Source: Nitrospirota bacterium
Lineage (GTDB): Bacteria; Nitrospirota; Leptospirillia; Leptospirillales; Leptospirillaceae
Length of the DNA stretch: 64,000 nt
Assembly (NCBI GenBank): GCA_021806225.1
Contig: JAJZXW010000041.1
Coordinates: forward strand, 21,355-85,354
Direction: 5' to 3'
The notes under the pieces were generated by a model, which did not search any database, had not been told where the DNA came from, and saw nothing but the letters and a program-made list of their open reading frames with translations. The translations under genes and the position numbers were made by a program. Of this stretch, positions 36,445 to 63,766 are shown piece after piece; position 1 is the stretch's first letter; each line of letters begins with the position of its first letter.

Positions 36445-39400
36445 TCAATTCTTCCTTTCTCCCTCACGCCTTCTCCGCTCCTCCTCCAGAATGGCCTCTG
36501 CCAACTGATCAGAAACTTTTTTCAAGGGAGCGAGGTCTGATTCCAGCGGACTCAGCCCATTCCCCCGAATTCTCCGAACTCCTGCCGCCAAAGTTTTGTG
36601 ATAGCGGGAGTGAAGCCGGGCGATCTTCCCTTCGGGAGCCAGCCCAAAATTTTGCATGATTTCCCGGACAGGACAATTCACAACGTCATCCAGTGTCGTC
36701 GGATCAAAAACGGCCAGGTTCTGAAGCAGATATTCCAATTGCAACCCATGAGTCCGGACCAGCAGGGCATAGAGGCCGAGAAGGGATTTCGGCATAAAGC
36801 TCCTTTCGGGGGGAAACTCCCGAAGAAAGAGGACGAGATCGGGAAGACGAATGGGCTTGGAGATCTCATAGCCCTGGAGAAAATCGACTCCCAGCATGCG
36901 CATGGCATCCAGGATCGGGCCGGTTTCCACCCCTTCCACCACAAGGGAAAGCCCCATCCGGTGGGAGAGTTCCATGATTGCCTCGACGAAATGGAGATCC
37001 TTGGGTCGCGCTTCGAGGGTCCGGACGAATGCCTGATCGAGCTTCACCTTGTCGACGGGGAGATCTTTCAGGCGAAGGAGAGACGAATAGGCGCTTCCCA
37101 CATCGTCCATGGCCAACCTGACCCCCAACCCCTTAAGCCGTTTCAGGAGATCGAGAGCCACAACTGTTTCGCCGAACTCCTGTCCCTCGAGAATCTCGAG
37201 CGTGAGGCGGGACGGGTCGATCCGGGAAGCCCCGAGCATCCTCCCGAGGCATTCGAGGCATCCTTCGCTGATGGATCGGGGATCCACATTCACAGAGACC
37301 CAGAGGGACGGGTCCGTCTCGAAAAGCTCCCCAAGATCCGAGAGGGCCCGTTCCAGCACCTGCCGGGAAAGCTCGAAGAGATCGTCGCCCCCATAGTCCT
37401 GAAGAAAGGCGGTCGGGGAGAGGATCGTCCCATCAGAGTTCCGGAGGCGTGCAAGGGCTTCGATCCCCGCGATCCGGCCTGTCCTGCCGTCGAGGATTGG
37501 CTGATAATGGACCTCCACCTTCCGCTCGTAGAGCAGTCTCTGCGCCAGTGTGCGCGCCAGCGGAACCGTCTCTCCATAAATCATCCAGCAGCGGGAACGG
37601 TCATTCTTGTGGGACTTGCTTTCATAGAGAGCCTGATCCGCAAGCCGCATGAGATTTTCCGGATTTTCGGGCGATCCCGTGCCGGGAGAGGACAAGGCCA
37701 CACCGATCGACACTCCCACCGTCACCCCTTCCCCCTTCTCCAGCCTCACGGGAATCCTTGCGGTCCGGTCGATCCTGTCGAGGAGATCCCCAAGCTCCTC
37801 CCGACCCGTGACATTCTCAAGAAGCAAAACAAATTCATCTCCTCCGAGACGCGCCAGGAAGTCTGTCTTTCGAAGAACTCCCAGGATCCTCTCCCCCGTC
37901 AGACGAAGAAGTCGGTCTCCGGCTTCGTGGCCATAGCGGTCGTTGACCGGCTTGAAGCCGTCAAGGTCGAGCATCGCGACGGCGAAGGACCACCCGTACC
38001 GGGCGGAGCGGGCAAGGAGCCTGTCGAACTCAAGATCGAGCCCTCGCCTGTTCGGAAGGCCGGTCAGCCGGTCGTGGCGCGAGTCGAACTCGAGCCGTTG
38101 GGTCAGCTCGATCAGGGAAGTGATGTCCCGCTGGTTTCCGACAAATTCGACGATCCGGCCGGAGGAATTCCGGAGCGGGCTGATGGAAAGGAGATTCCAG
38201 AAGGGTGTCTTGTCCTTCCTGTAGTTCAGGATTTGACCGTGAAAAGGGCGTTCCTCCCGAAGAGCCGTGCGGATTTCCTCGACCGTCGCGGGGTCGCTCC
38301 CCTCCCCCTGAAGGATCCGGCAATTCTGCCCCATCATCTCGTCTGCCGTGTACCCCGTGATCGATGCAAACCCGTCGTTTGCAAAGATCACACGTCCATC
38401 TGGCCCTGTGATCACCACTCCTTCTCCGACGGCTCCTACCGCGCTCGAGAGAAGATTTTGCCGGGAGAGAAGGTCCAGGCGGTCGAGGCCAAGAGAGATA
38501 TTTCGGGCAAGTTCGGTCAGAAGCCCTTCGAGGACGGGGTCGCTGAAGGCTCCCTCCTTCGCATGGCCGACGAAAAGGAGTCCCCAGGGCTTCCCCTTCC
38601 GAAGGATGGGAAGGGCAGCACTCGCGTTGAGGCCGAACTCCCTGAGCCTTCCCGCCCAGAGCGCCCGGGTTCCTGCCGCATCCGGATCGAAGACGGGAGC
38701 GCGTCCCGCAAGGGCCAGAACGAGATGATCCGATATTTCGCGCGCTCCTTGCGGGGTAGAAGAGTGCCCTTCCTCAAGGAAGTCGGCCCGTCCCGAAGAC
38801 GCGATCACATCAATCCCTCCCCGGCCACCCGGACAGAGGATGGCGGCCACCGTTATCTCTCCGTGGGTGACAGCCAGGTCGCAAAGTTTCGAGAGAAGGG
38901 TGGACTCGTCGGATCCTGCCGAAAGCGCCTCTGAGGCATGGGCGAGAAGGGTGTTGTAGGAAGAGAGGAGTCGGAGTCGCTCCGTCTGGGCATGACGGTC
39001 GCCCACGTCATGGACGGTTCCCACGACCACAGAGGGTTCGTCCGGAATCCGGGCCAGGGAGATGTCCACCATGACCGGATGCCCGTTCTTGTCGACCATT
39101 CTCACATCCGGGATCTCGACGCTCTCCCGTCCGGGAAGGAGTCCGTAGGCAAAGCCCACCCGCTCGAATTCCTCCGGGTCTCCATAGAGCATCCGGGTCG
39201 TATGACCGACCATCTCCCCGACCTGGTCGTAGCCCAGCATCTGCCGCATACGGTCGTTGACATAGCGGATCCGGCGCTTTTCGAGAAGCATGATCCCCGC
39301 CCGGGTGTTTTCAAGAAGAACCTTCTCGAGGGTCGCCAACTCCCTTTCCCGTCGAAGGGACTCGAGACGGTCGAGTCCCCGGGAGACGTCCCGTGCCAGC

Positions 39401-51876: not shown

Positions 51877-51925
51877 TGGTACTTGGTATCACAATTCCGG
51901 CTATCTGTTGTACAAAGGAAGCTTC

Positions 51926-53008
51926 ATGGCCTTTCCCGCTCTCGTATCCAGACATTTCAGACGATTTTTTCTGACCATAGCCCTTTGGCTGACCCTTCTT
52001 GCCGGGATTTCTGCAACTCCCGCTCGAGCAGACGAGGCCACGGAAGGTCCCCAGGACGTAAACGGCGATCTCATCCCCGACCTGGCCGAAATGGCCCCCC
52101 ACTATCTCTCCTGGGGACCCAACACCAGCGGACCGATGTTCACCGGAACGGCCGAGGTCGAACCGGTCGGCTCCTTCTTCTACGAACCCTACTGGTTCGA
52201 CTACCTTCAGCCGGGCCTCGGATTTTCGTCGCTTTACATGCCGCAGAGGATCTCGATCGGCCTGATCAAAAACTGGGAGTTCGACGTCCTCGTTCCGTTC
52301 GTCGCCAACCAGGGGACCTCTCCGACAACGCCGTCAGGGATGACTATCAACGCCTTCGGAATGGGAGACTCGATCGTCTGGCTCAAGCAGCAACTCACCA
52401 ACGACGCAGACCCTTACCACTTCTGGGCGCGTCCCGCCCTCACCCTGGAGTACCAGTTCACCCTTCCCACCGGTCATTTCCTCAACCTGAATCCCCAGAT
52501 GCACACCGTCGACCAGACTGGGGACGGGAGCTTCGACGAGGGCCTGTACCTGGTCATGCGCAAGCACTTCAAGCCCTTCATGCTCTACCTGGAACTGGGG
52601 GACATCATCGAGAACCCGACCCAGGTCGGGGCCGGATTCACCTTCGACAACGCCCTCGTGACGACCCCCCAGGCCCAAACCGTCGTCAACGGCAACCTGC
52701 TCTGGTTTTCGGGGGCCTTCGAGCATGTCCTGAACGACAAGTGGGGCGCCGGCTATGTCCTCGAGTTCTTCGGAGAAAGCCAGACAGGCCAGAACCTTCT
52801 GTTCGGCCCCGCCAACGCCCCGGCCTGGAGCTTTCTCTGGGTGGATCCGGGAATCGAGATCACCTGGCCCGACACCGAACGGGTCTCGGTCACCTGGGGC
52901 CTTGCCATGGGCTTCCCCATCTACCAGTCTGACTACCCGGCCACCTACACTCCGATGGGAACGATCACTGTCTACTACAACGGTCCGTTCGGCTACCGGG
53001 GAGAATGA
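51926..53008 (+). CDS. Secreted outer-membrane-like protein (possibly the MetA-pathway/transporter beta-barrel family)
   Basis: ATG 51926 is preceded by AAGGAAG. The signal peptide ends PARA-DE and the protein is rich in aromatic beta-strand segments. The motif GMGDSIVWLK...LPTG resembles that family. Confidence 0.55.
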   Translation: MAFPALVSRHFRRFFLTIALWLTLLAGISATPARADEATEGPQDVNGDLIPDLAEMAPHYLSWGPNTSGPMFTGTAEVEPVGSFFYEPYWFDYLQPGLGFSSLYMPQRISIGLIKNWEFDVLVPFVANQGTSPTTPSGMTINAFGMGDSIVWLKQQLTNDADPYHFWARPALTLEYQFTLPTGHFLNLNPQMHTVDQTGDGSFDEGLYLVMRKHFKPFMLYLELGDIIENPTQVGAGFTFDNALVTTPQAQTVVNGNLLWFSGAFEHVLNDKWGAGYVLEFFGESQTGQNLLFGPANAPAWSFLWVDPGIEITWPDTERVSVTWGLAMGFPIYQSDYPATYTPMGTITVYYNGPFGYRGE

Positions 53009-53036: not shown

Positions 53037-53693
53037 ATGCGGGAACACCCCTTTTTCAGAAACATCCGGACGCGGCTTTCGTCAGGATTCCTTCTCCTTC
53101 TGAGCCTCTCCGCCTGCGCTACGCTCGACAGTCCGGCCGACAAGAGGATGGCCCTCGTGCACAGGAGCCGGATTCTTCTTGATGCGGGACAGGTCGCCTC
53201 CGCCAGGCGGCTCACGGAGGAGCTCATCGCCCGCTATGGACCATCCCCCTTTCTCCTGAACCAGATGGCCGTGATACGGGACCGGGAGGGAAGGCCCGAT
53301 ATGGCCCTCCGTATCCTGATCCATGCGCATCGCCTTTATCCGAACTCGACGGTCCTGACCCTCAATCTGGCCGATATGGAACTCGTCCGCCACGATCCAC
53401 AGGGGGCCCGGGAGACCCTCCGTCCGATTCTCGACCGGAAGGAATGGCCAAACGGCTTCCGGACCCTCATGAGCCGAATCGATCTCGACTCCGGCAACCT
53501 GGCGGAAGCCCATCTCTTCCTCCACGAAGCCCTCGTCCGCCATCCGGACAACCCCCTTCTTCTCGCTACCATGGGGCTGCTTCACAGCCGGATGGGACTC
53601 CGTAAAAAAGCTCGGGAGGACTTCCGGAAGGCCATGGCCCGAAGCGACAATCCCAGACTCAAGTCCCGGATCCTGACCCTCCTCGCCAACTGA
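53037..53693 (+). CDS. TPR-repeat lipoprotein
   Basis: Start at internal Met 53037 (MREHPFF...) with lipobox LSLSAC. TPR-like helices follow. The longer ORF-track N-terminus overlaps the preceding gene. Confidence 0.65.
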   Translation: MREHPFFRNIRTRLSSGFLLLLSLSACATLDSPADKRMALVHRSRILLDAGQVASARRLTEELIARYGPSPFLLNQMAVIRDREGRPDMALRILIHAHRLYPNSTVLTLNLADMELVRHDPQGARETLRPILDRKEWPNGFRTLMSRIDLDSGNLAEAHLFLHEALVRHPDNPLLLATMGLLHSRMGLRKKAREDFRKAMARSDNPRLKSRILTLLAN

Positions 53694-53817: not shown

Positions 53818-55701
53818 ATGAATTCCTCTCCCAAACCTTCCCTCTTCGTTCCCGATCCGGAGACCATCCGCCGGAGCCGGATTCCAGACTATGACGGATT
53901 CTACGCTGCTTCGGTGGCCGACCCCGCCTCCTTCTGGGGAAACGTCCTGAAAGACCTTCATTTCACGAAGGCACCCACGAAGATCCTGGACTGGAATCCG
54001 AAATCCTTCGAGGCCCGGTGGCTGGTGGGAGCGGAAGGAAACATCTGCGAGAATGCCCTCGACCGGCATGTCCGGGACGGATTCGCGAACAAGGTCGCGC
54101 TCATCTGGGCGGGAGACCGGGGAGAGGAAGATATCTTCACCTACGGGCGCCTTCTCGACCAAACCGTACGCTTCGCCCGCATTCTCCAGAGACTCGGGGT
54201 GGGGAAGGGAGACCGGGTCACGCTCTTTCTCCCGCCGACTCCGGCGCAGGTCATCGCCATGCTGGCCTGCGCCCGGCTCGGGGCCATCCACTCGGTCGTC
54301 TTCTCGGGATTTTCCCAGGCCGCCCTCCGGAGCCGACTCGAGGATTTCGAACCCAAGGTCCTCGTAACCGCCGACTGCGGCTACCGGCGCGGCAAGCGCA
54401 TCCCTCTCCTCGAGACAGCCCGCGCCGCCCGGAAGGGACTGTCCTCGATCGCCGCGACCCTCGTCGTTCCAAGGGACGCGTCTCCTGAATCCCTGGAATC
54501 CGGAGAGCGCGCCCTTCCGGACCTCATGGAGGAGGTCCGCTTCGACGGACCCCTCTCCCCCGTCCCTGTCTCCTGCGACGATCCCCTCTTCGTTCTCTAC
54601 ACCTCGGGAACTACGGGAAAACCCAAGGGCGTGGTCCACGTGCAACTGGGGTACATGCTGGGAACCTACGCCACCACCCGCCACATCTTCGACCTTCGAG
54701 ATTCGGACGTTTACTTCTGCGTTGCCGACCCGGGCTGGATCACCGGCCACTCCTACATCGTCTACGGCCCCCTTCTGAACCGGGCCACCGTCCTCCTGTC
54801 GGAAGGGACTCCGGAGTATCCCGACGCGGGGCGCCACTGGTCCCTGATCGAACGCCACCGGGTCTCCATCTATTATTCGACCCCCACCACCATCCGGCTC
54901 CAGATGCGCTTCGGGGACTCCTGGCCCGCCAACCGCGACCTGTCGTCTCTCCGGATTCTCGGGTCGGTGGGGGAGCCCCTGAACCCCGAGGCCTGGCATT
55001 GGCTCCACCGCGTCACGGGCGGAAAACTTCCCATCATGGACACCTGGTGGCAGACGGAAACAGGCATGATCATGGTCAGCCCCCTCCCCTCGACCCCGGA
55101 AAAGCCGGGATCCGCGGGCCGCTCCTTTCCAGGAGTGGTGGCCGACGTTGTCGACGCCTCCGGAAAGAGCCTTCCTCCCGGAGAAACCGGCACAGTTGTC
55201 ATCCGGACCCCCTGGCCCTCCATGTTCCGGACCGTATTTCGCGATCCGGAGCGCTACCGGAAATACTGGACGGAGATTCCCGGAGCCTTTTTTTCAGGGG
55301 ATTCGGCCCGGCGCGACGAAGACGGGTTCTTCTTCTTCCTCGGCCGCGTGGACGATGTGATCAAGGTCGCCGGACATCGCCTTGGAACGGCCGAAATCGA
55401 AAGCGCCCTGATCACACACCCCAAGGTCGCCGAAGCGGCCGCCATCGGGAAGCCCGACGAACTCCGGGGAGAGATCATCAAGGTCTTCGTGGTTTTGCAT
55501 CCGCATGCCACCGATACCCCGCCCGCCCATGAGGAGATCAAGAAGCATGTCCGGACCGAACTGGGAGGAATTGCCGAACCCCATGAGGTGGACATCGTCA
55601 TCTCCCTTCCAAAGACCCGGAGCGGGAAGATCATGCGCCGGGTCCTGAAGGCCCGGGAGATGGGCTTGCCCGAAGGCGACCTCTCGACCCTGGAGGATTA
55701 G
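53818..55701 (+). CDS. acs: Acetyl-CoA synthetase (AMP-forming acetate--CoA ligase)
   Basis: 627 aa with motifs YTSGTTGKPKGV, WWQTETG, GRVDDVIKVAGHRLGTAEIE and PKTRSGKIMRR. Confidence 0.92.
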   Translation: MNSSPKPSLFVPDPETIRRSRIPDYDGFYAASVADPASFWGNVLKDLHFTKAPTKILDWNPKSFEARWLVGAEGNICENALDRHVRDGFANKVALIWAGDRGEEDIFTYGRLLDQTVRFARILQRLGVGKGDRVTLFLPPTPAQVIAMLACARLGAIHSVVFSGFSQAALRSRLEDFEPKVLVTADCGYRRGKRIPLLETARAARKGLSSIAATLVVPRDASPESLESGERALPDLMEEVRFDGPLSPVPVSCDDPLFVLYTSGTTGKPKGVVHVQLGYMLGTYATTRHIFDLRDSDVYFCVADPGWITGHSYIVYGPLLNRATVLLSEGTPEYPDAGRHWSLIERHRVSIYYSTPTTIRLQMRFGDSWPANRDLSSLRILGSVGEPLNPEAWHWLHRVTGGKLPIMDTWWQTETGMIMVSPLPSTPEKPGSAGRSFPGVVADVVDASGKSLPPGETGTVVIRTPWPSMFRTVFRDPERYRKYWTEIPGAFFSGDSARRDEDGFFFFLGRVDDVIKVAGHRLGTAEIESALITHPKVAEAAAIGKPDELRGEIIKVFVVLHPHATDTPPAHEEIKKHVRTELGGIAEPHEVDIVISLPKTRSGKIMRRVLKAREMGLPEGDLSTLED

Positions 55702-56109
55702 ATGGGAACCCCCTCTCCGCTTGTCGGCCGCCTCTTGCATGTTCGCATGCGCGTCAACGACCTCGAACGCACCGTGGCCTTTTACCGGGACATCCTGGGA
55801 CTTACGGAAACACGCCGCATCGTTTCCCCCCGGGGATCGAAAATCGCCTACCTGAAGGTCTCCGGATCCGAGACGGAACTTGAAGTTACGGAATACAAGG
55901 CATCGGGAACGGTTGTCGTACCTCCGGATCTCGTCCATCTGGCCTTTCGCGTGGAGAACATGGATCGGACCCTTGAGCGGCTCCGGGATCTCTCCGTGCC
56001 GGTAACCGACGGCCCGACGGAGACCGAAAGCAGTGTCTTTGCTTTCATCGACGCGCCGGAAGGCTATGAAATCGAACTGATCGCCCCACGATCGCCCGCT
56101 GGGCGCTGA
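55702..56109 (+). CDS. VOC-superfamily protein (glyoxalase I / methylmalonyl-CoA epimerase-like)
   Basis: 135 aa (LLHVRMRVNDLERTVAFYRDILGL...HLAFRVENMD...GYEIELI). Its ATG directly abuts the acs stop. Confidence 0.75.
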   Translation: MGTPSPLVGRLLHVRMRVNDLERTVAFYRDILGLTETRRIVSPRGSKIAYLKVSGSETELEVTEYKASGTVVVPPDLVHLAFRVENMDRTLERLRDLSVPVTDGPTETESSVFAFIDAPEGYEIELIAPRSPAGR

Positions 56110-56317
56110 CGCTCCTCCCGCCTCTTGGTCCGGTATGGCCGGAATCAGGATCGAATCCGTCCCGCTCTTTTAAGCTGCCAAGGGTCCGGGAACGGAAGCC
56201 CCCCCGCGAGGACGACCCGGAAAATAAAGGATTCCTCCCGAACTCTCCCGGGAGTCCTGACGGCTCCGGGGCCGTCCGATGCCCTCACGCATCCTACCGG
56301 GAAGACTCGCTTTTCCT

Positions 56318-58033
56318 TCAGGGTTCGGGAACCATCCGGATATGGCCCGAAGGACATTCCCGGGCGCAGAGTCCGCATCCCTTGCAATAGTCGTAGTCAA
56401 ACACATAGGGAACGGGAAGGTCGGACCTTCCTCCGGTCTTGAGCACAGCCCCATCCGGACACAGGGTCCAGCAATTGTCGCATTCAAGACAGTGGCCGCA
56501 AGAAAAACACCGGTCCGCCTCCTGCCGGAGAAGGGGGAGGGGTCCGGTTGTCTCGATTTCGGAAAATCCGTCGCGGGCCTCCGGGGGGGCTTCCTGGAGG
56601 GCAAAGGCGGGACGCCGCTCGAAATAGACCCTGTTGAGGGAGGAATAAGGAATGGGGGTCGGAGGCGTCTTCGGGGAAAGCTCCTTCTTCCGGAGCAGGG
56701 CATCGATCATTCGCGCCCCATGATGGCCGCTCCCCACGGCGTGCGAGACGATTCCCCCGCCCGGACAGGCATCTCCTCCGGCAAAGATCCGGGTTTCCCC
56801 CTCGACCTGACCGGTCGCCAGAACAGGAAGAACGGTCCGGTTTCGCAGGAGGCGGGCGATCCCGGCGGGATCGACCTCCTGGCCCACCGCCGGAATGACA
56901 GCGTCGGCCTCGAGAACTGTCTCCGTTCCCTCAAAAGCCCGGTGCACGGGAGTTTGCCCCTCAATCTCCTTGAGAGCATGCACCAGTTCGACCCCGACGA
57001 CCCGTTCCTCCCGGAGAATCAGCCTCCCGATGCGCCGCCCGGGATGAATCCGGACCCCCTCCTCGAGGGCCATCCCCACCTCCCGGGAAATGGCCGGCAT
57101 GACTCCCCGCCCGGGTTGGGAAGGAGCTCCGGGAAGCTCCTCGTCTGTCACCACGTGAACCTCGCGGGTACCGGTCCGAAGGAGGGAGCGGGCCAGATCG
57201 ATGGCGGTGTTCCCGCCTCCCACCACGATGGCCCGCTCCCACCGGGGAAGGGTTCCGACGTTTCTCCATTCCCACAGGAGATCGAGCCCGTGGTGAAGAT
57301 CCCCCGGAAGGGCGTGGTCGACGGAATAGCTCCGGTTCTTCTGGCGGCCCGGAGCCAGAAACACCGCCGAGAATCCCTCCTCCAGGTCCTCGAGGGAGAG
57401 ATCCCGCCCCAGCTTCGTTCCTGGCCGGAAATCGATCCCCACCGCCAGAACCCGTTCGACCTCCCGGGAAAGGACCTCGCCGGGAAGACGGTAGTCGGGT
57501 ATGACCCGGCAGTTCCCCCCCGCCTCGGGCAGGGCATCGAACAGGGTGACCCGGTACCCGAACCGCCGCAGGTGGTAGGCGCAGGAGAGGCCGGCAGGAC
57601 CGGCTCCGACCACCGCCACGGCTTCGTCCCTTTTTTCGCCGTCGAACCCCGGGTATGACCATCCCTCCCGAAGGGCCATGTCCCCCAGGAAGCGCTCGAC
57701 CGAATGGATCGAGACCGCCGCGTCAAAGGCGCCCCGATGGCAGGAGGATTCGCAGGGATGCGGACAGACCCGGCCTGTCACCGCCGGGATCGGGTTCGCG
57801 GCCACCAGGGACTCCCAGGCTTCCCGGGGACGGTCCATGGCAAGATGGTCGAGGTAGACGGGAATCTCTTCGTGGGCCGGGCAAGCCCCATGGCAGGGAG
57901 AGGCGGAGGTCTCGTACAGGGGACGCTCCAGCCTCCAGCTTCCCGTGTGATTCGACCGCGTGGTCCCGGGAAAGGCAAAGCCTCCCGGCGTAACCCGGGG
58001 AGGGGAGGGTGGACCGTCTCGCTCTATCCCCAT
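56318..58033 (-). CDS. GltD-like NAD(P)H/FAD oxidoreductase fused to a C-terminal 2x[4Fe-4S] ferredoxin (PorD-like) module
   Basis: Start reset to Met 58033 (MGIERDG...). The N-terminal Fe-S region reads GACPAHEEIP...GRVCPHPCESSCHRG. The dinucleotide fold includes VAVVGAGPAGLSCAY and VVGGGNTAIDLA. The C-terminus carries CFSCGHCLECDNCWTLCP and CKGCGLCARECP. Confidence 0.8.
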   Translation of the reverse strand: MGIERDGPPSPPRVTPGGFAFPGTTRSNHTGSWRLERPLYETSASPCHGACPAHEEIPVYLDHLAMDRPREAWESLVAANPIPAVTGRVCPHPCESSCHRGAFDAAVSIHSVERFLGDMALREGWSYPGFDGEKRDEAVAVVGAGPAGLSCAYHLRRFGYRVTLFDALPEAGGNCRVIPDYRLPGEVLSREVERVLAVGIDFRPGTKLGRDLSLEDLEEGFSAVFLAPGRQKNRSYSVDHALPGDLHHGLDLLWEWRNVGTLPRWERAIVVGGGNTAIDLARSLLRTGTREVHVVTDEELPGAPSQPGRGVMPAISREVGMALEEGVRIHPGRRIGRLILREERVVGVELVHALKEIEGQTPVHRAFEGTETVLEADAVIPAVGQEVDPAGIARLLRNRTVLPVLATGQVEGETRIFAGGDACPGGGIVSHAVGSGHHGARMIDALLRKKELSPKTPPTPIPYSSLNRVYFERRPAFALQEAPPEARDGFSEIETTGPLPLLRQEADRCFSCGHCLECDNCWTLCPDGAVLKTGGRSDLPVPYVFDYDYCKGCGLCARECPSGHIRMVPEP

Positions 58034-59028
58034 CGGGATCCCCCACGGCGGACGGTGTCGGCCCCCTCGGAGTCGCGGGGTCCGGGAGCCTCGGCCCGCA
58101 GGCCGTAGCGTTCGATGTTGGCGTCGGCCAGGGCCTGAAGGTGCTCGCGCTCCTCCCGGGCCTCCGGACTGTCCCCCAGGAGGTGCTGGAACCGGATCTG
58201 GAGCTCGAGGTATTCCCGGACCGGGCGGGGGTTCCGGATCTTCATGGTTTCGACGACATGTCCCCGCTCCATCTCGAGGACGGGAAAAAGTCCGGTCTCC
58301 ACCGCCAGCCGGTCCACCGCGACCGTGAGCGCGCTGTCGTGGCCCCACCCCAGAGGGCAAGGAGAGTGGACCAGGAGAAAGGAGGGACCTTCGATGTCTA
58401 GCCCCCGGCGGACCTTGGTCCTGAGATCGGACGGGTAGGCCACCGAGGCGGTGGCTGCGTAGGGAATGCCGTGGGCCGCGATGATGGCCAGGAGATCCTT
58501 CTTGAAATGACGTTTTCCCTGACGGACCTTTCCGGCGGGAGAGGTGTTGGTCCAGGCGCCGTGAGGGGTCGATCCCGAGCGCTGGATCCCGGTGTTCATG
58601 TAGGCCTCGTTGTCGAAGCAGACGAACAGGACATCGTGATTCCGCTCGAGCATCCCGGAGAGGGCCTGGAAGCCGATATCAAATGTCCCTCCATCACCTG
58701 CAAAGGCCAGGACGCGCGTTTTACGACCCTGGGCCCGAAGGGCCACCTCGATTCCGGCGGCGACCGCGGCGGCATTTTCGAACAGCGAGTGGATCCAGGG
58801 CACAGTCCAGGCCGACTGGGGCCAGGGCGTCGTAAAGATCTCGAGGCATCCGGTGGCATTGGCCACGATGACGTCGGGTCCGGCAGCCTCGAGGACAAGT
58901 CGCGTGGCGAGGGCCTGGCCGCATCCCTGGCAGGCCCCGTGGCCGGATTCCATCCCTGAGAATCGCGGCTGGCTGTTGCGAAGCGCCGCCCAGTCGACGG
59001 AGGGAGAAGGAGGCTCGGAAGAGGTCAT
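58024..59028 (-). CDS. porB: 2-oxoacid:ferredoxin oxidoreductase beta (TPP-binding) subunit
   Basis: Start reset to Met 59028 after GAGGAG. Motifs are CQGCG, ATGCLEIFTT, and GDGGTFDIGFQAL...NEAYMNTG (TPP/Mg site). Confidence 0.88.
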   Translation of the reverse strand: MTSSEPPSPSVDWAALRNSQPRFSGMESGHGACQGCGQALATRLVLEAAGPDVIVANATGCLEIFTTPWPQSAWTVPWIHSLFENAAAVAAGIEVALRAQGRKTRVLAFAGDGGTFDIGFQALSGMLERNHDVLFVCFDNEAYMNTGIQRSGSTPHGAWTNTSPAGKVRQGKRHFKKDLLAIIAAHGIPYAATASVAYPSDLRTKVRRGLDIEGPSFLLVHSPCPLGWGHDSALTVAVDRLAVETGLFPVLEMERGHVVETMKIRNPRPVREYLELQIRFQHLLGDSPEAREEREHLQALADANIERYGLRAEAPGPRDSEGADTVRRGGSRWG

Positions 59029-59038
59029 GCATGACTCC

Positions 59039-60247
59039 TCAACGTGGTGAAAAAAGGGATCCGGACGGAGCCGACGCATCGGGCCCGGGGTCGGGAAGCT
59101 TCCGGGGATCGAGATCAAAGAAGGAAAAGGCCGGAGGATTTTTCTCGAGCGAGTCCAGCATCTCCCGGAAGATCCCGTCCGGAACATTTCGGCCTCCGAG
59201 CCCCACCACGACGTTCGCGACCCGTGGCGCTCCCGGCACGCCGTAAAGGGCCGAGCGGATCTCGTGGGCCACGATTCCCCCCGATCCCGGAGACAGGGCC
59301 CGGTCGAGGACGAGCAGGTCGGCAAGCCCCGTGCAGGCCCTCCGAATCGCCTCGGCCGGGAAGGGCCGGAAGGAGCGGAGGCGGAGAAGGCGGACATGCC
59401 GCCCCAGCAGTCCGGCCTGATGGGCATCCTTGAGGGTCCCGTAAACGGATCCCATGGCGAGGATCCCGACCGGTGCCTCCCGGTCTCCTTCCACATGAAG
59501 AAGCCCCCCGCATTCGCGTCCCACGAGGTGACCCCAGTCCCGGTCGGTCTCCAGAATTTCCCGCTCCGCGGCATCGAAGGCCCGATGCTGGAGATAGCGC
59601 ATCTCCGTGAAAAATTCGGGGGAGACCAGGGTCCCCTGGGAGAGGGGGGCCACGGACGAAAGGGTGCGGGAGAAGTGGAACGGAGGGAGAAAGGCGTCGA
59701 CCTGGGCCGCCTCCGGAAGATCGATCGGTTCAAGGGTGTGGGTGAGGGTGAAACCGTCCATGCAAACCATCACGGGCAGTTCGGTGCGCTCCGAGATCCG
59801 GAAGGCCTGGATCGTGGTATCCACCGCCTCCTGGTTGTCGGCGCAGTATAACTGGATCCACCCCGAATCCCGGACCGCCATGGAGTCCTGGTGGTCGTTC
59901 CAGATGGAGACCGGGGAAGACACCGCGCGATTTGCGCAGGTCAGGACGACAGGAATCCGGAGCCCTGAAATGTTGTAGAGAACCTCGCTCATGAGAAGAA
60001 TGCCCTGGGAAGCGCTGGCGGTGTAGGAGCGGGACCCGGCGGCCGCGGCCCCCAGAACGACCGAAGCGGCCGAAAACTCGCTTTCGACGCTCACGAGTTC
60101 CGCCGCAAGGAGGCCGTCCGCGATCAGGCGGGCCAGTCCTTCCACAATGTGGGTCTGGGGTGTGATCGGGTAGGCCGCCACGACCTGGGGACGGCAGAGT
60201 GCGACCGCCCGGGCGATTGCCTGGGAGCCCTCGAGGGCCTCACGCAT
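59039..60247 (-). CDS. porA: 2-oxoacid:ferredoxin oxidoreductase alpha subunit
   Basis: 402 aa (MREALEGSQAIARAVALCRPQVVAAYPITPQTHIVE...SASQGILLMSE). Confidence 0.88.
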   Translation of the reverse strand: MREALEGSQAIARAVALCRPQVVAAYPITPQTHIVEGLARLIADGLLAAELVSVESEFSAASVVLGAAAAGSRSYTASASQGILLMSEVLYNISGLRIPVVLTCANRAVSSPVSIWNDHQDSMAVRDSGWIQLYCADNQEAVDTTIQAFRISERTELPVMVCMDGFTLTHTLEPIDLPEAAQVDAFLPPFHFSRTLSSVAPLSQGTLVSPEFFTEMRYLQHRAFDAAEREILETDRDWGHLVGRECGGLLHVEGDREAPVGILAMGSVYGTLKDAHQAGLLGRHVRLLRLRSFRPFPAEAIRRACTGLADLLVLDRALSPGSGGIVAHEIRSALYGVPGAPRVANVVVGLGGRNVPDGIFREMLDSLEKNPPAFSFFDLDPRKLPDPGPDASAPSGSLFSPR

Positions 60248-60833
60248 TGACTGTCTCCTTCCAGAGCCCCGCCTCGACCAAGGAGCCTCCGGCCTTCACC
60301 AGAGAGAGATTTTTCTGGAGAACATCTCCGGAAAAGCGTCCCGAAAGGGCCTGAACGAGGCTGTCTGCAGAGAGGATTCCGGTGAGGGAAAGAAAGGCCG
60401 ACAAGAGGGGAGCGTTGGGAATCGGACGGCCCATGAGCTCCATCGCCAGGCGCGTGGCGGGGATGGAGGCGATCCGGACGGACGGATCGATCGAAAACCC
60501 TTCTTCACCCAGCCGGCTTCTGATCGTGTCTGCCGAGTCGGGAGAGTTGACGAGAATGGCTCCCTCCCGGACGAGACCTGTCACGGTCTCCGCAATCCGG
60601 AGCAACCCATGATCCTGAAGGATGAGATACCGGGGTGCGGTCACCTGCGAGCGCCGGAGGATCGGAGTGGACTCGATGCGGACGAAGGCCGCGATCGGGG
60701 CTCCCCGCCTTTCGGCCCCGAAGCTCGGGAAGGCCTGGGAATACTTCCCTTCTAAGAAGGCGGCCGTCGCCAGAAGATAGGCTGCAAGAACGTTTCCCTG
60801 TCCGCCCCGTCCATGGATCCGGATTTCGACCAT
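60240..60833 (-). CDS. porG: 2-oxoacid:ferredoxin oxidoreductase gamma subunit
   Basis: Start reset to Met 60833 (MVEIRIHGRGGQGNVLAAYLLA...FPSFGAERRGAP). It overlaps porA by 8 nt. Confidence 0.85.
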   Translation of the reverse strand: MVEIRIHGRGGQGNVLAAYLLATAAFLEGKYSQAFPSFGAERRGAPIAAFVRIESTPILRRSQVTAPRYLILQDHGLLRIAETVTGLVREGAILVNSPDSADTIRSRLGEEGFSIDPSVRIASIPATRLAMELMGRPIPNAPLLSAFLSLTGILSADSLVQALSGRFSGDVLQKNLSLVKAGGSLVEAGLWKETVNA

Positions 60834-60914
60834 CGTTCCCCTCTTTCCTTCCCGGAAATCCGAAAACCGTCGAGTCCGGCCCAGATACGAGAGACGGCAT
60901 CGCATTCCTTTTTC

Positions 60915-60942
60915 AAAATATCACTCGCAATACTGTTTGCAA
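60915..60942 (-). promoter_or_regulatory. Candidate promoter for the porGAB operon in the divergent intergenic region
   Basis: On the minus strand: TTGCAA (60942-60937, part of palindrome TTTGCAAA), a 16-nt spacer, then TATTTT (60920-60915). This is a sequence pattern only. Confidence 0.25.
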
Positions 60943-61000
60943 AGGAGGGTGTGGTATTCTTTGGGGGCTGGGAAGACCACCCAGGGACGGGAGCAGGCCC

Positions 61001-62116
61001 ATGACGGACGAATCCGGGAGATTTCTTGAAAGGGAGCGCTTTTCCGTTCTCTTCGACCTGCTGCGGGAGCGGGGGTACCATCTCGTCGGCCCCCGGATCC
61101 GGGACGGGGCGATCGTTTATGGAGAGCTCCCGGGCCCGGAGGATCTCCCGGTGGGAGTCCGTGACCTCCAGGGCCCGGGCTCCTACCGGCTCGCTCCAGG
61201 AGATTCCGGCCGCCATTTCGCATGGGCCAACGGACCTCAGGCCTTGAAGCCCCTCCTGTTCTCTCCGCGTGAGACCCTCTGGGACTCCCGACGCGAGGCT
61301 GACGGATCCCTCTCCTTTTCCACTCCCGACACCCCATCGCGCCCCCTGGCAGTCATCGGAGTCCGGGCCTGCGATCTCTCGGCCCTGGAACTGCAGGACC
61401 GGCATTTCGGCAAGGCTCCCTTCCCCGATCCGTTCTATGCCGCCCGGAGGCGGGATCTTTTTCTGGTCGCCGTCGACTGTTCCCACCCGGCCGAAACCTG
61501 CTTCTGCGCCTCGACAGGAGACGGGCCCGACGCTCGCTCGGGATTCGACCTGGCCCTGGGGGAGATTGACGAAGGATTCCTTGTCCGGCCCGGCTCGGTA
61601 AAGGGACGGGACCTGCTCCGGGATCTTCCCCTGTCATCATCCGACCCCGTCATGGAGGAGACCCTCAGCAATCAGACCGAACGGGCAAGAATCTTCCAGC
61701 AGCGCACCCTTCCCTCGCAAAACCTCCGGGGCGCCCTGGCTGGCCGCCCGGATCACCCCCACTGGAACAGCCTGGCCACCCGCTGCCTCTCCTGCGGGAA
61801 CTGCACCTCCGTCTGTCCGACCTGCTTCTGCTTTTCGGAGCATGAAGACCCGTCCCTCGACGGGCTTTCGAGCCAGCACGTCCGACAATGGGATTCCTGT
61901 TTCACCCCCGGCCACAGCTATATTCATCCGGCCCCCCTCAGGGGGGAGACACGGTTCCGGTACCGCCAATGGCTGACCCACAAACTCGACTATTGGCACG
62001 ATCAGTACGGACGCTCCGGATGCGTCGGATGCGGACGCTGCGTCAGCTGGTGCCCCGTCGGAATCGACTTCACGGCCGACCTCCCCATTCTTCTCGAGGA
62101 GCCCGATGGACGGTAA
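61001..62116 (+). CDS. Sulfhydrogenase beta-like (AsrA/HydB-type) 4Fe-4S subunit
   Basis: Start reset to Met 61001 (MTDESGRF...). Motifs are CLSCGNCTSVCPTCFC and CVGCGRCVSWCPVGI. It has the same layout as the anaerobic sulfite reductase A / hydrogenase beta subunit. Confidence 0.78.
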   Translation: MTDESGRFLERERFSVLFDLLRERGYHLVGPRIRDGAIVYGELPGPEDLPVGVRDLQGPGSYRLAPGDSGRHFAWANGPQALKPLLFSPRETLWDSRREADGSLSFSTPDTPSRPLAVIGVRACDLSALELQDRHFGKAPFPDPFYAARRRDLFLVAVDCSHPAETCFCASTGDGPDARSGFDLALGEIDEGFLVRPGSVKGRDLLRDLPLSSSDPVMEETLSNQTERARIFQQRTLPSQNLRGALAGRPDHPHWNSLATRCLSCGNCTSVCPTCFCFSEHEDPSLDGLSSQHVRQWDSCFTPGHSYIHPAPLRGETRFRYRQWLTHKLDYWHDQYGRSGCVGCGRCVSWCPVGIDFTADLPILLEEPDGR

Positions 62117-62936
62117 CCCGCATCTCCCCCGGCCGGCCGTCGTCCGAGACCGGATCGAGGAAACTCCGACGGTCATCACCTTGCGTCTCGAGCCCGAGGG
62201 TGGTCCCCCCATCCCCTTCCCCTTCAGGCCGGGACAGTTCAACATGGTAGGGGTCTTCGGCGTGGGAGAGGTTCCCCTGTCCATCGTCTCCGACCCTTCC
62301 GACACGGACTTCTTCGACCATACGGTCCGGATCGTCGGACGCGTCACCGAGGCGATGGCACGGCTGGTGCCGGGAGATCGCCTGACCATTCGGGGTCCCT
62401 TCGGAAACGGCTGGCCCATGGAGGAGGCGCGCGGACGCGACATTGTCCTGGTGTCGGGGGGCCTCGGATGCGCCCCGCTCGTCTCGGTGGTGAACTATGT
62501 GGCCCGGCGCCGGGAGGACTTCGGTTCCCTCACCGTTCTCCACGGGGTGAAGAATCCGGGGGACCTCTTCTGGAAGGAGCGACTTTCCCGGCTGAACGCG
62601 CTCGAAGGAACCCGCGTCTTCCTGTCGAGCGATGCGGGGGGTCCGGGATGGGAGGGAGCGGTCGGACCGGTGACCGACCTGATCGGGAACATTCCGCTCA
62701 CTCCCCGGACCACGGCCAAGATCTGCGGACCTGAGCCCATGATGCTGGCCACCGTGAAAAAACTTCTGGCCCAGGGCATTCCCGAAAGCGAGCTCTGGAT
62801 CAGCCTCGAGCGGAACATGCAGTGCGCCGCAGGATTCTGCGGCCACTGCCAATTGGGAGAGATGTTCGTCTGCCGCAGTGGACCGGTCTTCCGGTATGCC
62901 AAAATCAAGAACCGTCTGGGAATCCAGGGGCTCTGA
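62106..62936 (+). CDS. Sulfhydrogenase gamma-like FAD/NAD(P)-binding subunit with C-terminal 2Fe-2S site (AsrB/PyrK-like)
   Basis: 276 aa with motifs RPGQFNMV and LVSGGLGCAPL. The C-terminal cluster reads CAAGFCGHCQLGEMFVC. Confidence 0.82.
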   Translation: MDGNPHLPRPAVVRDRIEETPTVITLRLEPEGGPPIPFPFRPGQFNMVGVFGVGEVPLSIVSDPSDTDFFDHTVRIVGRVTEAMARLVPGDRLTIRGPFGNGWPMEEARGRDIVLVSGGLGCAPLVSVVNYVARRREDFGSLTVLHGVKNPGDLFWKERLSRLNALEGTRVFLSSDAGGPGWEGAVGPVTDLIGNIPLTPRTTAKICGPEPMMLATVKKLLAQGIPESELWISLERNMQCAAGFCGHCQLGEMFVCRSGPVFRYAKIKNRLGIQGL

Positions 62937-62938
62937 CG

Positions 62939-63766
62939 ATGACGCCATCCACCCTACCCGTCCAGAAGGACCCTTTTTCTTCCCGGAAACCCCGGGTAGC
63001 AGTCCTGAAGCTGGCTTCCTGCGACGGATGCCAATTGGCCTTTCTGGGTCTCGGGGAACGCCTGCTCGAGCTCGCCGCCGCGGTCGAGTTCGTCCATTTC
63101 GCCGAAATGGGCCCCCTCGGCCCTCTGACCGATCTCGACATCACCTTCATCGAGGGCAGTCTTTCGACCCGGGAGGACCTCGAAACGGTCCGCTCTGTCC
63201 GCAAGGAAAGCCGGTACCTGGTGACGATCGGGGCCTGCGCCACTTCCGGCGGGATCCAGGCGCTCCGCAACCTGACCTCCGGAGAGTCCCTCTCCGGGAT
63301 CTATCCTTCCCCCGGGTTCATCGATTTTCTTGACCGTTCGACCCCAGTGGCATCGGAGATTCCGGTCGACCTCGAACTCTGGGGATGTCCTGTGACCGGG
63401 GAGCAGATCCTTGGAGCCCTCCGGTCGCTTCTCTTTGGGACAACTCCCCCGGTCGAGCATGACAAGGTCTGCCTCGAATGCAAGCGCCGCGCGATTGCCT
63501 GCGTGACGGTCACGATGGGGGTTCCCTGCCTGGGACCGGTCACCCTCACGGGATGCGGGGCCCTCTGTCCCTCATTCAACCGGGGGTGCTACGGATGCTT
63601 CGGTCCATCCGAAAATCCCGAAACGTCCTCCCTCGCCCGGAAGTTTGCCGGACTTGGGCTCCCTCCGGACGAGATCGCCCGGCGCTTTCTCTTCATCAAC
63701 AGCAACGCCGGTCCTTTCCGGGAGGAAGGGGAACGATGGCGGGGAGATCACTCCCATGAACGATGA
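62939..63766 (+). CDS. [NiFe]-hydrogenase small (delta) subunit, cytoplasmic group 3 type
   Basis: ATG 62939 lies 2 nt after the previous stop. Motifs are LASCDGCQLAFL, GACATSGGIQAL and C-terminal CxxC clusters. No Tat signal peptide is present. Confidence 0.85.
   Translation: MTPSTLPVQKDPFSSRKPRVAVLKLASCDGCQLAFLGLGERLLELAAAVEFVHFAEMGPLGPLTDLDITFIEGSLSTREDLETVRSVRKESRYLVTIGACATSGGIQALRNLTSGESLSGIYPSPGFIDFLDRSTPVASEIPVDLELWGCPVTGEQILGALRSLLFGTTPPVEHDKVCLECKRRAIACVTVTMGVPCLGPVTLTGCGALCPSFNRGCYGCFGPSENPETSSLARKFAGLGLPPDEIARRFLFINSNAGPFREEGERWRGDHSHER

Follow-up and report, generated by a model that had tools for sequence, protein, structure and literature searches.

A pyruvate-type 2-oxoacid oxidoreductase operon of a Nitrospirota bacterium with a flavoprotein insertion in its delta subunit

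We analyzed a four-gene 2-oxoacid:ferredoxin oxidoreductase (OFOR) operon in a 64,000-nucleotide (nt) stretch of contig JAJZXW010000041.1, from a Nitrospirota bacterium of the family Leptospirillaceae (assembly GCA_021806225.1); this whole stretch is referred to below as the window. The genes porG, porA, and porB, together with the gene for a 571-amino-acid (aa) protein, form a real four-gene operon for a pyruvate-type 2-oxoacid oxidoreductase. The function of the small ferredoxin-like delta subunit, PorD, is supplied by the 571-aa protein, a flavoprotein fusion that should wire the enzyme to pyridine nucleotide, an assignment that is well supported by sequence comparison. Because the delta subunit is replaced, linkage to porGAB is conserved across phyla, and all cluster ligands are conserved, connection of the thiamine pyrophosphate (TPP) and Fe-S chain to pyridine nucleotide, as put forward in the original prediction made from the DNA letters, is the natural reading. 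The operon probably encodes an NAD(P)-linked OFOR, and the acceptor is probably pyridine nucleotide, not free ferredoxin.

The por operon and its split delta subunit

Pfam and NCBIfam searches confirmed the subunit identities of the products of its four open reading frames (ORFs). The operon comprises the following genes, from its first gene to its last:

60240-60833, minus strand: porG, first in the operon, gamma subunit (197 aa); Pfam POR, E = 1.7e-33
59039-60247, minus strand: porA, alpha subunit (402 aa); POR_N, E = 3.6e-69; PFOR_II, E = 2.9e-18
58024-59028, minus strand: porB, beta subunit (334 aa), binding TPP and one [4Fe-4S] cluster; TPP_enzyme_C, E = 1.7e-23
56318-58033, minus strand: split-delta flavoprotein gene (571 aa plus stop); full-length NF009410/PRK12771 match, AlphaFold2 model

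The order gamma, alpha, beta, 571-aa gene on the minus strand, with an 8-nt overlap between porG and porA, a 10-nt gap between porA and porB, and a 10-nt overlap between porB and the 571-aa gene, was borne out exactly as originally described. Shine-Dalgarno-like sequences precede all four ORFs, with GGAAAGAGGGG lying 5′ of the porG start codon (ATG). Gene calling done independently on a public contig that encodes the identical protein gave the same 334-aa and 571-aa products. No promoter-like site was detected in a scan of 55.9 to 61.3 kb, and a terminator scan of the same region returned two terminator-like sites where 4.6 were expected. The fusion gene is also overlapped, in its other frames or on the opposite strand, by ORFs of up to 459 aa, such as 56279-57658 (plus) and 56961-57726 (minus); these are artefacts, attributable to the 65% G+C content.

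All four subunit signatures of the four-subunit pyruvate/2-ketoisovalerate OFOR family were found. PorG scored 175.1 bits against the gamma-subunit model TIGR02175 (PorC_KorC; cut-off, 81.1). The PorA translation contains the YPITP motif of alpha subunits (AAYPITPQT). PorB aligned over residues 26-311 to chain 9bt4_C (E = 3.8e-104) and retains the hallmarks of a beta subunit in that alignment, namely, the TPP motif GDGg..DNEAYMNTG and the segments gC.gC, tgCle, and pCp.GWG. The delta-subunit signature, made up of an N-terminal arm and a 2x[4Fe-4S] core, is also present, with its two parts separated by an insertion. The absence of a free-standing delta gene, noted originally, held up: phmmer searches of the six-frame ORFs with the por proteins and the C-terminal domain found neither a second OFOR subunit nor a free PorD in the 64-kb window. 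A scan of the same ORFs for CxxCxxCxxxCP likewise returned no free porD, the sole other dicluster protein being HydB.

The 571-aa protein carries the Pfam domains Fer4_20 (residues 44-124, E = 5.7e-17), Pyr_redox_2 (139-436, E = 3.4e-21), and a 4Fe-4S dicluster domain (514-567), with dinucleotide-binding motifs for flavin adenine dinucleotide (FAD; GAGPAG at 143-148) and for NAD(P) (GGGNTA at 272-277). The motifs quoted in the original prediction (GRVCPHPCESSCHRG, VVGAGPAGL, VVGGGNTAID, CFSCGHCLECDNCWTLCP, and CKGCGLCARECP) are all present in it. When GltD/NfnB and PorD profiles were compared, as had been proposed, the native C-terminus passed the cut-off of the delta-subunit model TIGR02179 (PorD/KorD; 65.5 bits versus 60.05), the GltD models were missed, and an NfnB-like module was found. 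The protein matched positions 27-565 of the 566 of NF009410/PRK12771, "NAD(P)-binding protein" (470.9 bits, cut-off 516; E = 5.6e-141). We assign its parts as follows:

57902-57994, minus strand: residues 14-44, PorD N-terminal arm (PGT..TGSWR..RP), from alignment of a spliced chimera to PorD
57659-57901, minus strand: residues 45-125, GltD/NfnB-type cluster-binding region, from Fer4_20 and alignment to NfnB ligands
56684-57628, minus strand: residues 136-450, FAD domain with embedded NAD(P) domain, from Pyr_redox_2 and alignment to 4ylf_B
56498-56650, minus strand: residues 462-512, relocated (permuted) GltD/NfnB N-terminal segment, from a segment profile search
56321-56497, minus strand: residues 513-571, PorD 2x[4Fe-4S] core, from PorD_Arch (E = 9.3e-21), TIGR02179, and 9bt4_G (E = 6.6e-11)

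The evidence for a split PorD comes from a chimera in which residues 1-44 were spliced to residues 514-571 (102 aa). This construct covered residues 3-83 of the 85 of free PorD (9bt4_G) at 70 bits (E = 1.8e-18), compared with only 44.9 bits for the C-terminus without the arm. The TIGR02179 score rose from 63-65 bits without splicing to 87.6 bits for the chimera, which covered model positions 4-77 of 78. Because the spliced arm and core align end to end with free PorD, the 571-aa protein is a PorD interrupted between arm and cluster core by a flavoprotein. Of the original proposal that the ferredoxin (delta) module is fused to a GltD-like protein, the replacement of delta stands; the flavoprotein, in permuted form, is inserted into PorD, and delta is not a domain appended to GltD. 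Since both PorD halves flank the flavoprotein module, the case for replacement is firmer than a simple C-terminal fusion would make it.

The inserted module is itself rearranged. A profile of residues 462-514 matched the N-termini of the classical NfnB/GltD set (5vj7_A, positions 6-45, E = 2.5e-8; 5jca_L, 7-45; 4ylf_B, 5-42; 6s6s_G, 11-52; 7mfm_I, 7-51), and it also matched positions that follow the FAD domain in the large subunits of NfnABC/StnABC (9n5u_A, 552-594, E = 4.5e-11; 9bov_A, 525-567; 8oh5_C, 525-566). These matches indicate a circularly permuted GltD/NfnB-like unit. NfnABC/StnABC large subunits also gave the best sequence match of the flavoprotein module (E = 1.5e-69). An AlphaFold2 model built from 116 sequences (pLDDT, 90.4; pTM, 0.89), in which the linker and the ferredoxin core were confident, predicts that the whole 571-aa chain forms one rigid body. 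The top Foldseek matches were NfnABC/StnC large subunits (TMq, 0.74 to 0.76 over 530 to 618 columns), followed by classical NfnB, GltD, and DPD (TMq, 0.60 to 0.64).

Ligands for the additional clusters were assigned by alignment. C47, C51, C90, C94, C98, and E113 align to Thermotoga maritima NfnB C47, C51, C90, C96, C100, and E117, so that C51, C90, C94, and E113 are predicted to bind the proximal [4Fe-4S] cluster and C47 and C98 to provide half of the distal one. In NfnB, the distal cluster is also ligated by C39 and C42 (PMC7596348). The true N-terminal region of the 571-aa protein has no Cys at either of these positions in the alignment, and the relocated segment ends in R508-C509-x-x-C512, their counterpart. 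On these two grounds we infer that the distal cluster begun by C47 and C98 takes its remaining ligands from C509 and C512; with this placement, the protein holds the NfnB-type ligands for one Cys4 and one Cys3Glu [4Fe-4S] cluster. The PorD motif C515xxC518xxC521xxxC525P starts two residues past C512, and the core cysteines are C515/518/521/525 and C550/553/556/560. Conservation was counted over 201 aligned relatives: all 16 predicted ligands (C47, C51, C90, C94, C98, E113, C509, C512, and the core cysteines) are kept in at least 200 of them, and C509 and C512 in 200.

From these assignments we infer a physical complex and an electron path. The products of porG, porA, porB, and the 571-aa gene would form one heterotetrameric, probably dimer-of-tetramers, pyruvate-type OFOR whose delta subunit brings its own NAD(P)-reducing flavoprotein. 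Electrons would pass from TPP to the [4Fe-4S] cluster of PorB, through the two PorD-core clusters (C515-C560) to the distal GltD cluster (C47, C98, C509, C512) and the proximal cluster (C51, C90, C94, E113), and then to FAD and nicotinamide. Each protomer would hold five [4Fe-4S] clusters, one FAD, and one TPP.

Distribution of the fusion and comparison with known systems

A protein search returned thousands of relatives. The closest (77 to 85%) are from Nitrospirota metagenome-assembled genomes (MAGs) and include a cluster with a fragment from Leptospirillum group IV "UBA BS"; matches at about 50 to 55% come from Leptospirillum ferrooxidans, Thiobacillus, Chromatiales, Thioploca, Ectothiorhodospira, and Magnetospirillum. 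In contigs representing one genome per species, relatives are encoded at at least 589 loci in many phyla. Gene order was classified for the best 80 of these, with the following results:

porG-porA-porB-fusion: 58 of the best 80 loci
porB-fusion, with the upstream side beyond the contig end: 7 of the best 80 loci
porG-fusion-porA-porB, the fusion occupying the canonical delta slot: 7 of the best 80 loci
linked in another arrangement: 1 of the best 80 loci
no por gene within 6 kb: 7 of the best 80 loci

The synteny survey thus found the fusion linked to por genes at 73 of the best 80 loci, an association far beyond chance. The arm motif TGxW[RKQ] and the core motif C[KR]GCG[ILV]C occur in 73/73 por-linked proteins and are absent from 6 of the 7 unlinked ones. 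Clustering of ORFs around the best 80 loci revealed no conserved fifth gene, NfnA-like or other; two apparently frequent gene families (34 and 27 loci) proved to be out-of-frame ORFs over porG and the fusion gene in GC-rich DNA and were discarded.

The design is therefore widespread, not rare, and as a sequence family it is already modelled in NCBIfam and has been noticed in the literature. Relatives bear JGI labels such as "2-oxoacid:acceptor oxidoreductase delta subunit" and [quoted passage not shown] What is new here is the split-PorD/permuted-NfnB anatomy, the assignment of distal-cluster ligands, the division into NAD and NADP types, and the recurrent neighborhood of group 3b hydrogenase genes.

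Comparison with the pyruvate:ferredoxin oxidoreductase (PFOR) PorABDG, solved for Methanosarcina acetivorans (9bt4) and also represented by the Pyrococcus/Thermotoga type, shows clear homology of the alpha, beta, and gamma subunits and collinearity of both delta halves with the 85-aa PorD. The gamma-delta-alpha-beta order is kept in the 7 related loci with the fusion in the delta slot. In contrast to PorABDG, delta is here broken by a module of about 470 residues (FAD/NAD(P)/2x[4Fe-4S]), the fusion gene is shifted to the 3′ end of the operon in most lineages, the window included, and the predicted redox partner is pyridine nucleotide instead of free ferredoxin.

The protein also resembles DsrL, the NAD(P)H:acceptor oxidoreductase that serves dissimilatory sulfite reductase, with the same domain order of cluster region, FAD domain with embedded NAD(P) domain, linker of about 100 aa, and C-terminal 2x[4Fe-4S] ferredoxin (PMC7596348). 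Both comprise types with and without the nucleotide-binding motif YRR (NADP and NAD, respectively), and in both a flavoprotein would pass electrons directly to a partner Fe-S enzyme. The DsrL literature, however, expressly sets such por-type genes aside (PMC7596348), and by this rule of its definers the 571-aa protein is not a DsrL: its gene overlaps porB by 10 nt, and no dsr genes were found in the 64-kb window. The PorD arm (TGxWR) and the PorD motif CKGCG(I/L)C mark the por-linked proteins and are both missing from the unlinked, probably DsrL-like relatives. Six of the latter (L054, L057, L072, L075, L078, and L080) nonetheless keep the post-FAD segment "...EAxRCxSCG"; the unlinked relatives come from Lambdaproteobacteria, SAR324, Ignavibacteria, Myxococcales, and unclassified bacteria, and Lambdaproteobacteria and Ignavibacteria are among the taxa with DsrL-2. 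Next to L054, dsrAB was not found; rhodanese, sensor kinase, and efflux pump genes are located there. For DsrL, an N-terminal Ser/Thr and a Cys/Arg have been proposed as distal-cluster ligands (PMC7596348). If the unlinked relatives are DsrL, the relocated CxxC pair may instead give the distal-cluster ligands of that protein.

The large subunits of NfnABC/StnABC (9bov, 9n5u, and 8oh5) share the permuted topology and the "...EAxRCxxCG" segment after the FAD domain, and NfnB and GltD (4ylf, 5jca, and 6s6s) share the Cys3Glu ligation of the proximal cluster. Unlike NfnABC/StnABC, the system described here lacks a [2Fe-2S] domain, a partner of the NuoE/F-like or NfnA kind, and a formate-dehydrogenase-like domain. 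It differs from NfnB in having TDE for YRR and Ile for Arg333, and from classical NfnB/GltD in the relocation of the N-terminal 40 residues. Identification as NfnB was rejected for want of an NfnA gene, Arg333, and YRR. Identification as GltD was rejected on the scores against TIGR01317 (173 versus a cut-off of 448) and TIGR01318 (194 versus 483) and on gene context: no gltB-like gene adjoins it, and the flanks are porB and then, in convergent orientation, a glyoxalase-fold gene and acsA.

In PadEFGHI (phenylglyoxylate:NAD+) and in KorABC of Azoarcus evansii (2-oxoglutarate:NADP+), both NAD(P)-linked OFORs, the flavoprotein is a distinct subunit of another kind and not a GltD-like insertion in delta. 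The likeness lies in the use of a bound FAD protein, by which the TPP/Fe-S core of the OFOR reduces NAD(P)+ and does not release reduced ferredoxin. The models for Pad E, F, G, and I match the window gamma subunit, delta core, alpha subunit, and beta subunit, respectively, all far below their cut-offs (PadE, 130 versus 300; PadF, 34 to 53 versus 150; PadG, 265 versus 700; PadI, 223 versus 700), and identification of the operon as PadEFGHI was rejected on these scores. Pyruvate:NADP+ oxidoreductase (PNO) of Euglena and Cryptosporidium is a single-chain PFOR fused to a cytochrome-P450-reductase-type FMN/FAD domain, and Helicobacter combines PFOR with a diffusible flavodoxin and the separate reductase FqrB. 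Both systems achieve the net conversion of pyruvate, CoA, and NADP+ to acetyl-CoA, CO2, and NADPH, and neither is known to have a GltD/NfnB-type module or a split ferredoxin domain. For HdrA of ANME-1, an NfnB-like insertion of about 500 aa has been predicted within the ferredoxin domain (PMC9012536), and the PFOR of Propionibacterium is cotranscribed with an NfnB-like gene having an extra ferredoxin site (PMC7650540), likewise as a prediction. These cases share with the window operon an NfnB-like NAD(P)H module inside or beside the 2x[4Fe-4S] domain of a larger redox enzyme; their hosts are other enzymes, heterodisulfide reductase and a single-chain NifJ-type PFOR, respectively.

Cofactor, substrate, and direction of the reaction

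In NfnB, Y310-R311-R312 binds the 2′-phosphate of NADPH, and among DsrL proteins the presence of YRR goes with the use of NADP(H) and its absence with that of NAD(H) (PMC7596348). In the alignment to 4ylf_B, T296-D297-E298 of the window protein, within a stretch reading V-T-D-E-E, takes this place, and the YRR of NfnB is missing. The canonical VVYRRTRxxMPA is present in 70/201 relatives. These belong to a clade of 33 to 42% identity from Beta-, Alpha-, and Deltaproteobacteria, Actinomycetota, and others, which takes in all loci with the fusion in the delta slot. The clade of the window protein, about 37 to 39% identical to the YRR clades, lacks YRR and has an insertion of about 9 residues. Because two acidic residues replace the Arg-Arg of NADPH enzymes, the window enzyme is predicted to prefer NAD(H).

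With regard to substrate, the closest solved structure to PorA is the M. acetivorans PFOR alpha subunit (9bt4_B; E = 4.1e-95), and that enzyme outscores oxalate oxidoreductase for both alpha (322 versus 212 bits) and beta (352 versus 264 bits). The top NCBIfam matches of the alpha, beta, and gamma subunits are the PorA, PorB, and PorC models, respectively. Given this proximity of PorA and PorB to the M. acetivorans enzyme and these top matches, pyruvate is our best guess for the substrate, not a certainty.

The reaction would then convert pyruvate, CoA, and NAD+ to acetyl-CoA, CO2, and NADH, and the enzyme, sensitive to oxygen and independent of ferredoxin, would be the counterpart of pyruvate dehydrogenase when oxygen is low or absent. 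We hold with moderate confidence that NAD+-reducing oxidation of pyruvate without free ferredoxin is the best mechanistic reading. The acetyl-CoA + CO2/pyruvate couple lies about 180 mV below that of NAD(P)H (E0′), which favors oxidation; because of this gap, a hard-wired enzyme should run toward acetyl-CoA, CO2, and NAD(P)H, most clearly if it is of the NAD type. Leptospirillum already has a five-subunit POR for the reductive tricarboxylic acid (rTCA) cycle (PMC2607301). A third, similar POR cluster is present in Nitrospira marina, and its protein, which may correspond to the fusion, was among the most induced at low O2 (PMC8115632).

Direction also has to be considered in light of the flanking genes, which are as follows:

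61001-62116, plus strand: hydB; NCBIfam sulfhydrogenase model
62106-62936, plus strand: hydG (PyrK/NfnA-like); NCBIfam sulfhydrogenase model
62939-63766, plus strand: hydD; NCBIfam sulfhydrogenase model
63756 to beyond the window end, plus strand: hydA; RICGICP motif in the N-terminus
53818-55701, plus strand: acsA, acetate-CoA ligase; TIGR02188, 745 bits versus a cut-off of 724.95
55702-56109, plus strand: glyoxalase/VOC-fold gene (135 aa); weak matches to glyoxalase I models

The hyd operon, which diverges from the por operon across a 167-bp spacer, encodes a group 3b-type (sulfhydrogenase-like) [NiFe] hydrogenase; HydB, HydG, and HydD match the sulfhydrogenase beta, gamma, and delta models at E = 1e-42 to 1e-54, all under the equivalog cut-offs. 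Five actinobacterial MAG loci (L050, L053, L055, L071, and L074) also carry homologous hyd genes no more than 6 kb from their por-fusion operon. This arrangement suggests that the por-fusion enzyme and the group 3b hydrogenase are coupled through the NAD(P)H pool. Coupling could run from pyruvate through NAD(P)H to H2, in which case NAD(P)H could be vented as H2 via the neighboring hydrogenase, or from H2 through NAD(P)H to pyruvate, a direction possible only with very reduced nucleotide pools and high CO2. The AT-rich intergenic region between porG and hydB (60834-61000) contains a perfect palindrome, TTTGCAAA, at 60936-60943, just upstream of GGAGG, which is a candidate shared regulatory site for the two operons. 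On the other side, acsA and the glyoxalase-fold gene are translationally coupled and oriented convergently with the por operon, facing its 3′ end. AcsA could supply acetyl-CoA to the enzyme from acetate, or it could be a chance neighbor.

If the complex ran in reverse, as an NAD(P)H-driven pyruvate synthase, it would carboxylate acetyl-CoA made by AcsA while the hydrogenase and H2 kept NAD(P)H reduced, resulting in net H2-dependent assimilation of acetate and CO2 without free ferredoxin. The convergent acsA and divergent group 3b hydrogenase genes, the recurrence of hyd genes in the five actinobacterial loci, and the PEP synthase/PPDK-like genes found near the operon in 7 loci are consistent with this direction, as is the NADPH-type YRR of 70/201 family members. 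Pyruvate synthesis nears equilibrium when pyruvate is low, CO2 is high, and the NADPH pool is very reduced, and the PFOR-flavodoxin-FqrB chain of Helicobacter is reported to form pyruvate at the expense of NADPH. Against it, standard potentials make synthesis about 180 mV uphill, T-D-E in place of YRR predicts NAD(H), the cellular NADH/NAD+ couple is far too oxidized, and Leptospirillum-type organisms already have a dedicated five-subunit rTCA POR (PMC2607301). NAD(P)H-driven reductive carboxylation, suggested in the original prediction, would thus be thermodynamically unfavorable for an enzyme predicted to use NAD(H), and we regard synthesis as unlikely. The bifurcating or confurcating mode suggested alongside it, in which an NfnB-like FAD would split or merge electron pairs with a second partner (ferredoxin, hydrogenase, or other) besides NAD(P), found no support. 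It is true that, in sequence and fold, the flavoprotein module is nearest to the NfnB-like modules of bifurcating NfnABC/StnABC, and that the PyrK/NfnA-like HydG is encoded 1.3 kb away and recurs near the operon in several loci. HydG, however, is part of a hydrogenase operon that is complete (hydB-G-D-A); the best 80 loci share no conserved fifth gene, NfnA-like or other, the window gene having porB upstream and not nfnA; and the [2Fe-2S] domain that precedes the module in NfnABC/Stn, where the matches begin at residue 102, is replaced by the PorD arm. Bifurcating NfnB is distinguished from NfnB-like Fnor by an upstream nfnA, a conserved Arg333 (Pyrococcus furiosus), and an extended N-terminus (Huang et al. 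2025, PMC12221290). The equivalent of Arg333 of P. furiosus NfnI-L, the residue after M-(P/T)-A, is Ile315 in the window protein and is Arg in 0/201 relatives. This is weak evidence, because the large subunits of bifurcating NfnABC/Stn also lack that Arg. Since a single exit path from FAD is visible, bifurcation or confurcation seems highly improbable.

The same complex might act on another 2-oxoacid, such as 2-oxoisovalerate or other branched-chain substrates, aryl-pyruvates, glyoxylate, or oxalate. No pyruvate-specific equivalog cut-off was reached, and the VOR, oxalate oxidoreductase, and phenylglyoxylate dehydrogenase models scored strongly (PRK11864 VorB, 326 bits; OxalOxredbeta, 292 bits); moreover, PadEFGHI, the sole biochemically established NAD-linked bacterial OFOR named in NCBIfam, acts on phenylglyoxylate. 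The top rank of the PorA, PorB, and PorC models for three subunits argues for pyruvate instead, as do the far greater closeness of the M. acetivorans PFOR than of oxalate oxidoreductase and the pyruvate- and acetyl-CoA-related neighbors (AcsA here, PpsA/PPDK-like elsewhere), so another substrate appears quite unlikely. We consider very doubtful an energy-coupled pyruvate synthase, bifurcating or H2-poised, that fixes CO2 from NAD(P)H or H2 without free low-potential ferredoxin. If it did exist, it would answer where microaerophilic and aerobic autotrophs and acetate assimilators, for example, Leptospirillum, Nitrospira, sulfur-oxidizing Gammaproteobacteria, and Gallionella, obtain electrons at −500 mV.

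Several points weigh against NAD+-linked pyruvate oxidation itself. The pyruvate equivalog scores fall below their cut-offs (PorA_Arch, 391 versus 550; PorB, 372 versus 405; PorC, 183 versus 270), and another 2-oxoacid could therefore be the substrate. The predicted cofactor preference rests on three residues only, and GltD of the Bacillus subtilis type, which has no YRR either, is reported to use NADPH. Pyruvate synthesis would also fit the neighboring AMP-forming acetyl-CoA synthetase and a hydrogenase capable of H2 oxidation, and the flavoprotein module has its nearest structural relatives in complexes that bifurcate electrons. A literature search found passing mentions of por-linked family members and no biochemical study (purification or assay) of any of them.

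Wider implications and other features of the window

If NAD+-linked pyruvate oxidation is the correct reading, a large and phylogenetically wide range of bacteria would oxidize pyruvate to acetyl-CoA with direct formation of NAD(P)H by an Fe-S/TPP enzyme. Among them would be iron and sulfur oxidizers, Azospirillum, Rhodoferax, Gallionella, soil Actinomycetota, and, from human hosts, Gleimia, Varibaculum, and Sutterella. At present, such an operon is scored in genome-scale models and in annotation of the KEGG style as a PFOR lacking delta, or as one accompanied by an unrelated "glutamate synthase small subunit"; because these annotations give the electrons to ferredoxin, redox balance, H2 production, and oxygen sensitivity would be mispredicted. 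The TGxWR arm, RCxxCG, and CKGCG(I/L)C together offer a clean diagnostic that separates por-linked from DsrL-like proteins. The predicted hard-wired chain of five clusters from TPP to flavin would be a natural example for the engineering of ferredoxin-free pyruvate and CO2 chemistry.

Base composition changes along the window, from 52 to 60% G+C in the first 36 kb to 61 to 65% from 38 kb on, with a dip to 56% at 50 to 52 kb. The high-GC part is not obviously an island, since it holds housekeeping genes (PheS/PheT). A 366-aa ORF at 51908-53008 (plus strand) has a signal-peptide-like N-terminus and no NCBIfam match and lies upstream of a gene for a TPR-repeat protein (53037-53693). At 36445-42081 on the minus strand, a very large signaling protein (1878 aa) is encoded, in which several PAS and GAF domains precede GGDEF and EAL domains, a sensor of the cyclic di-GMP (c-di-GMP) turnover type.

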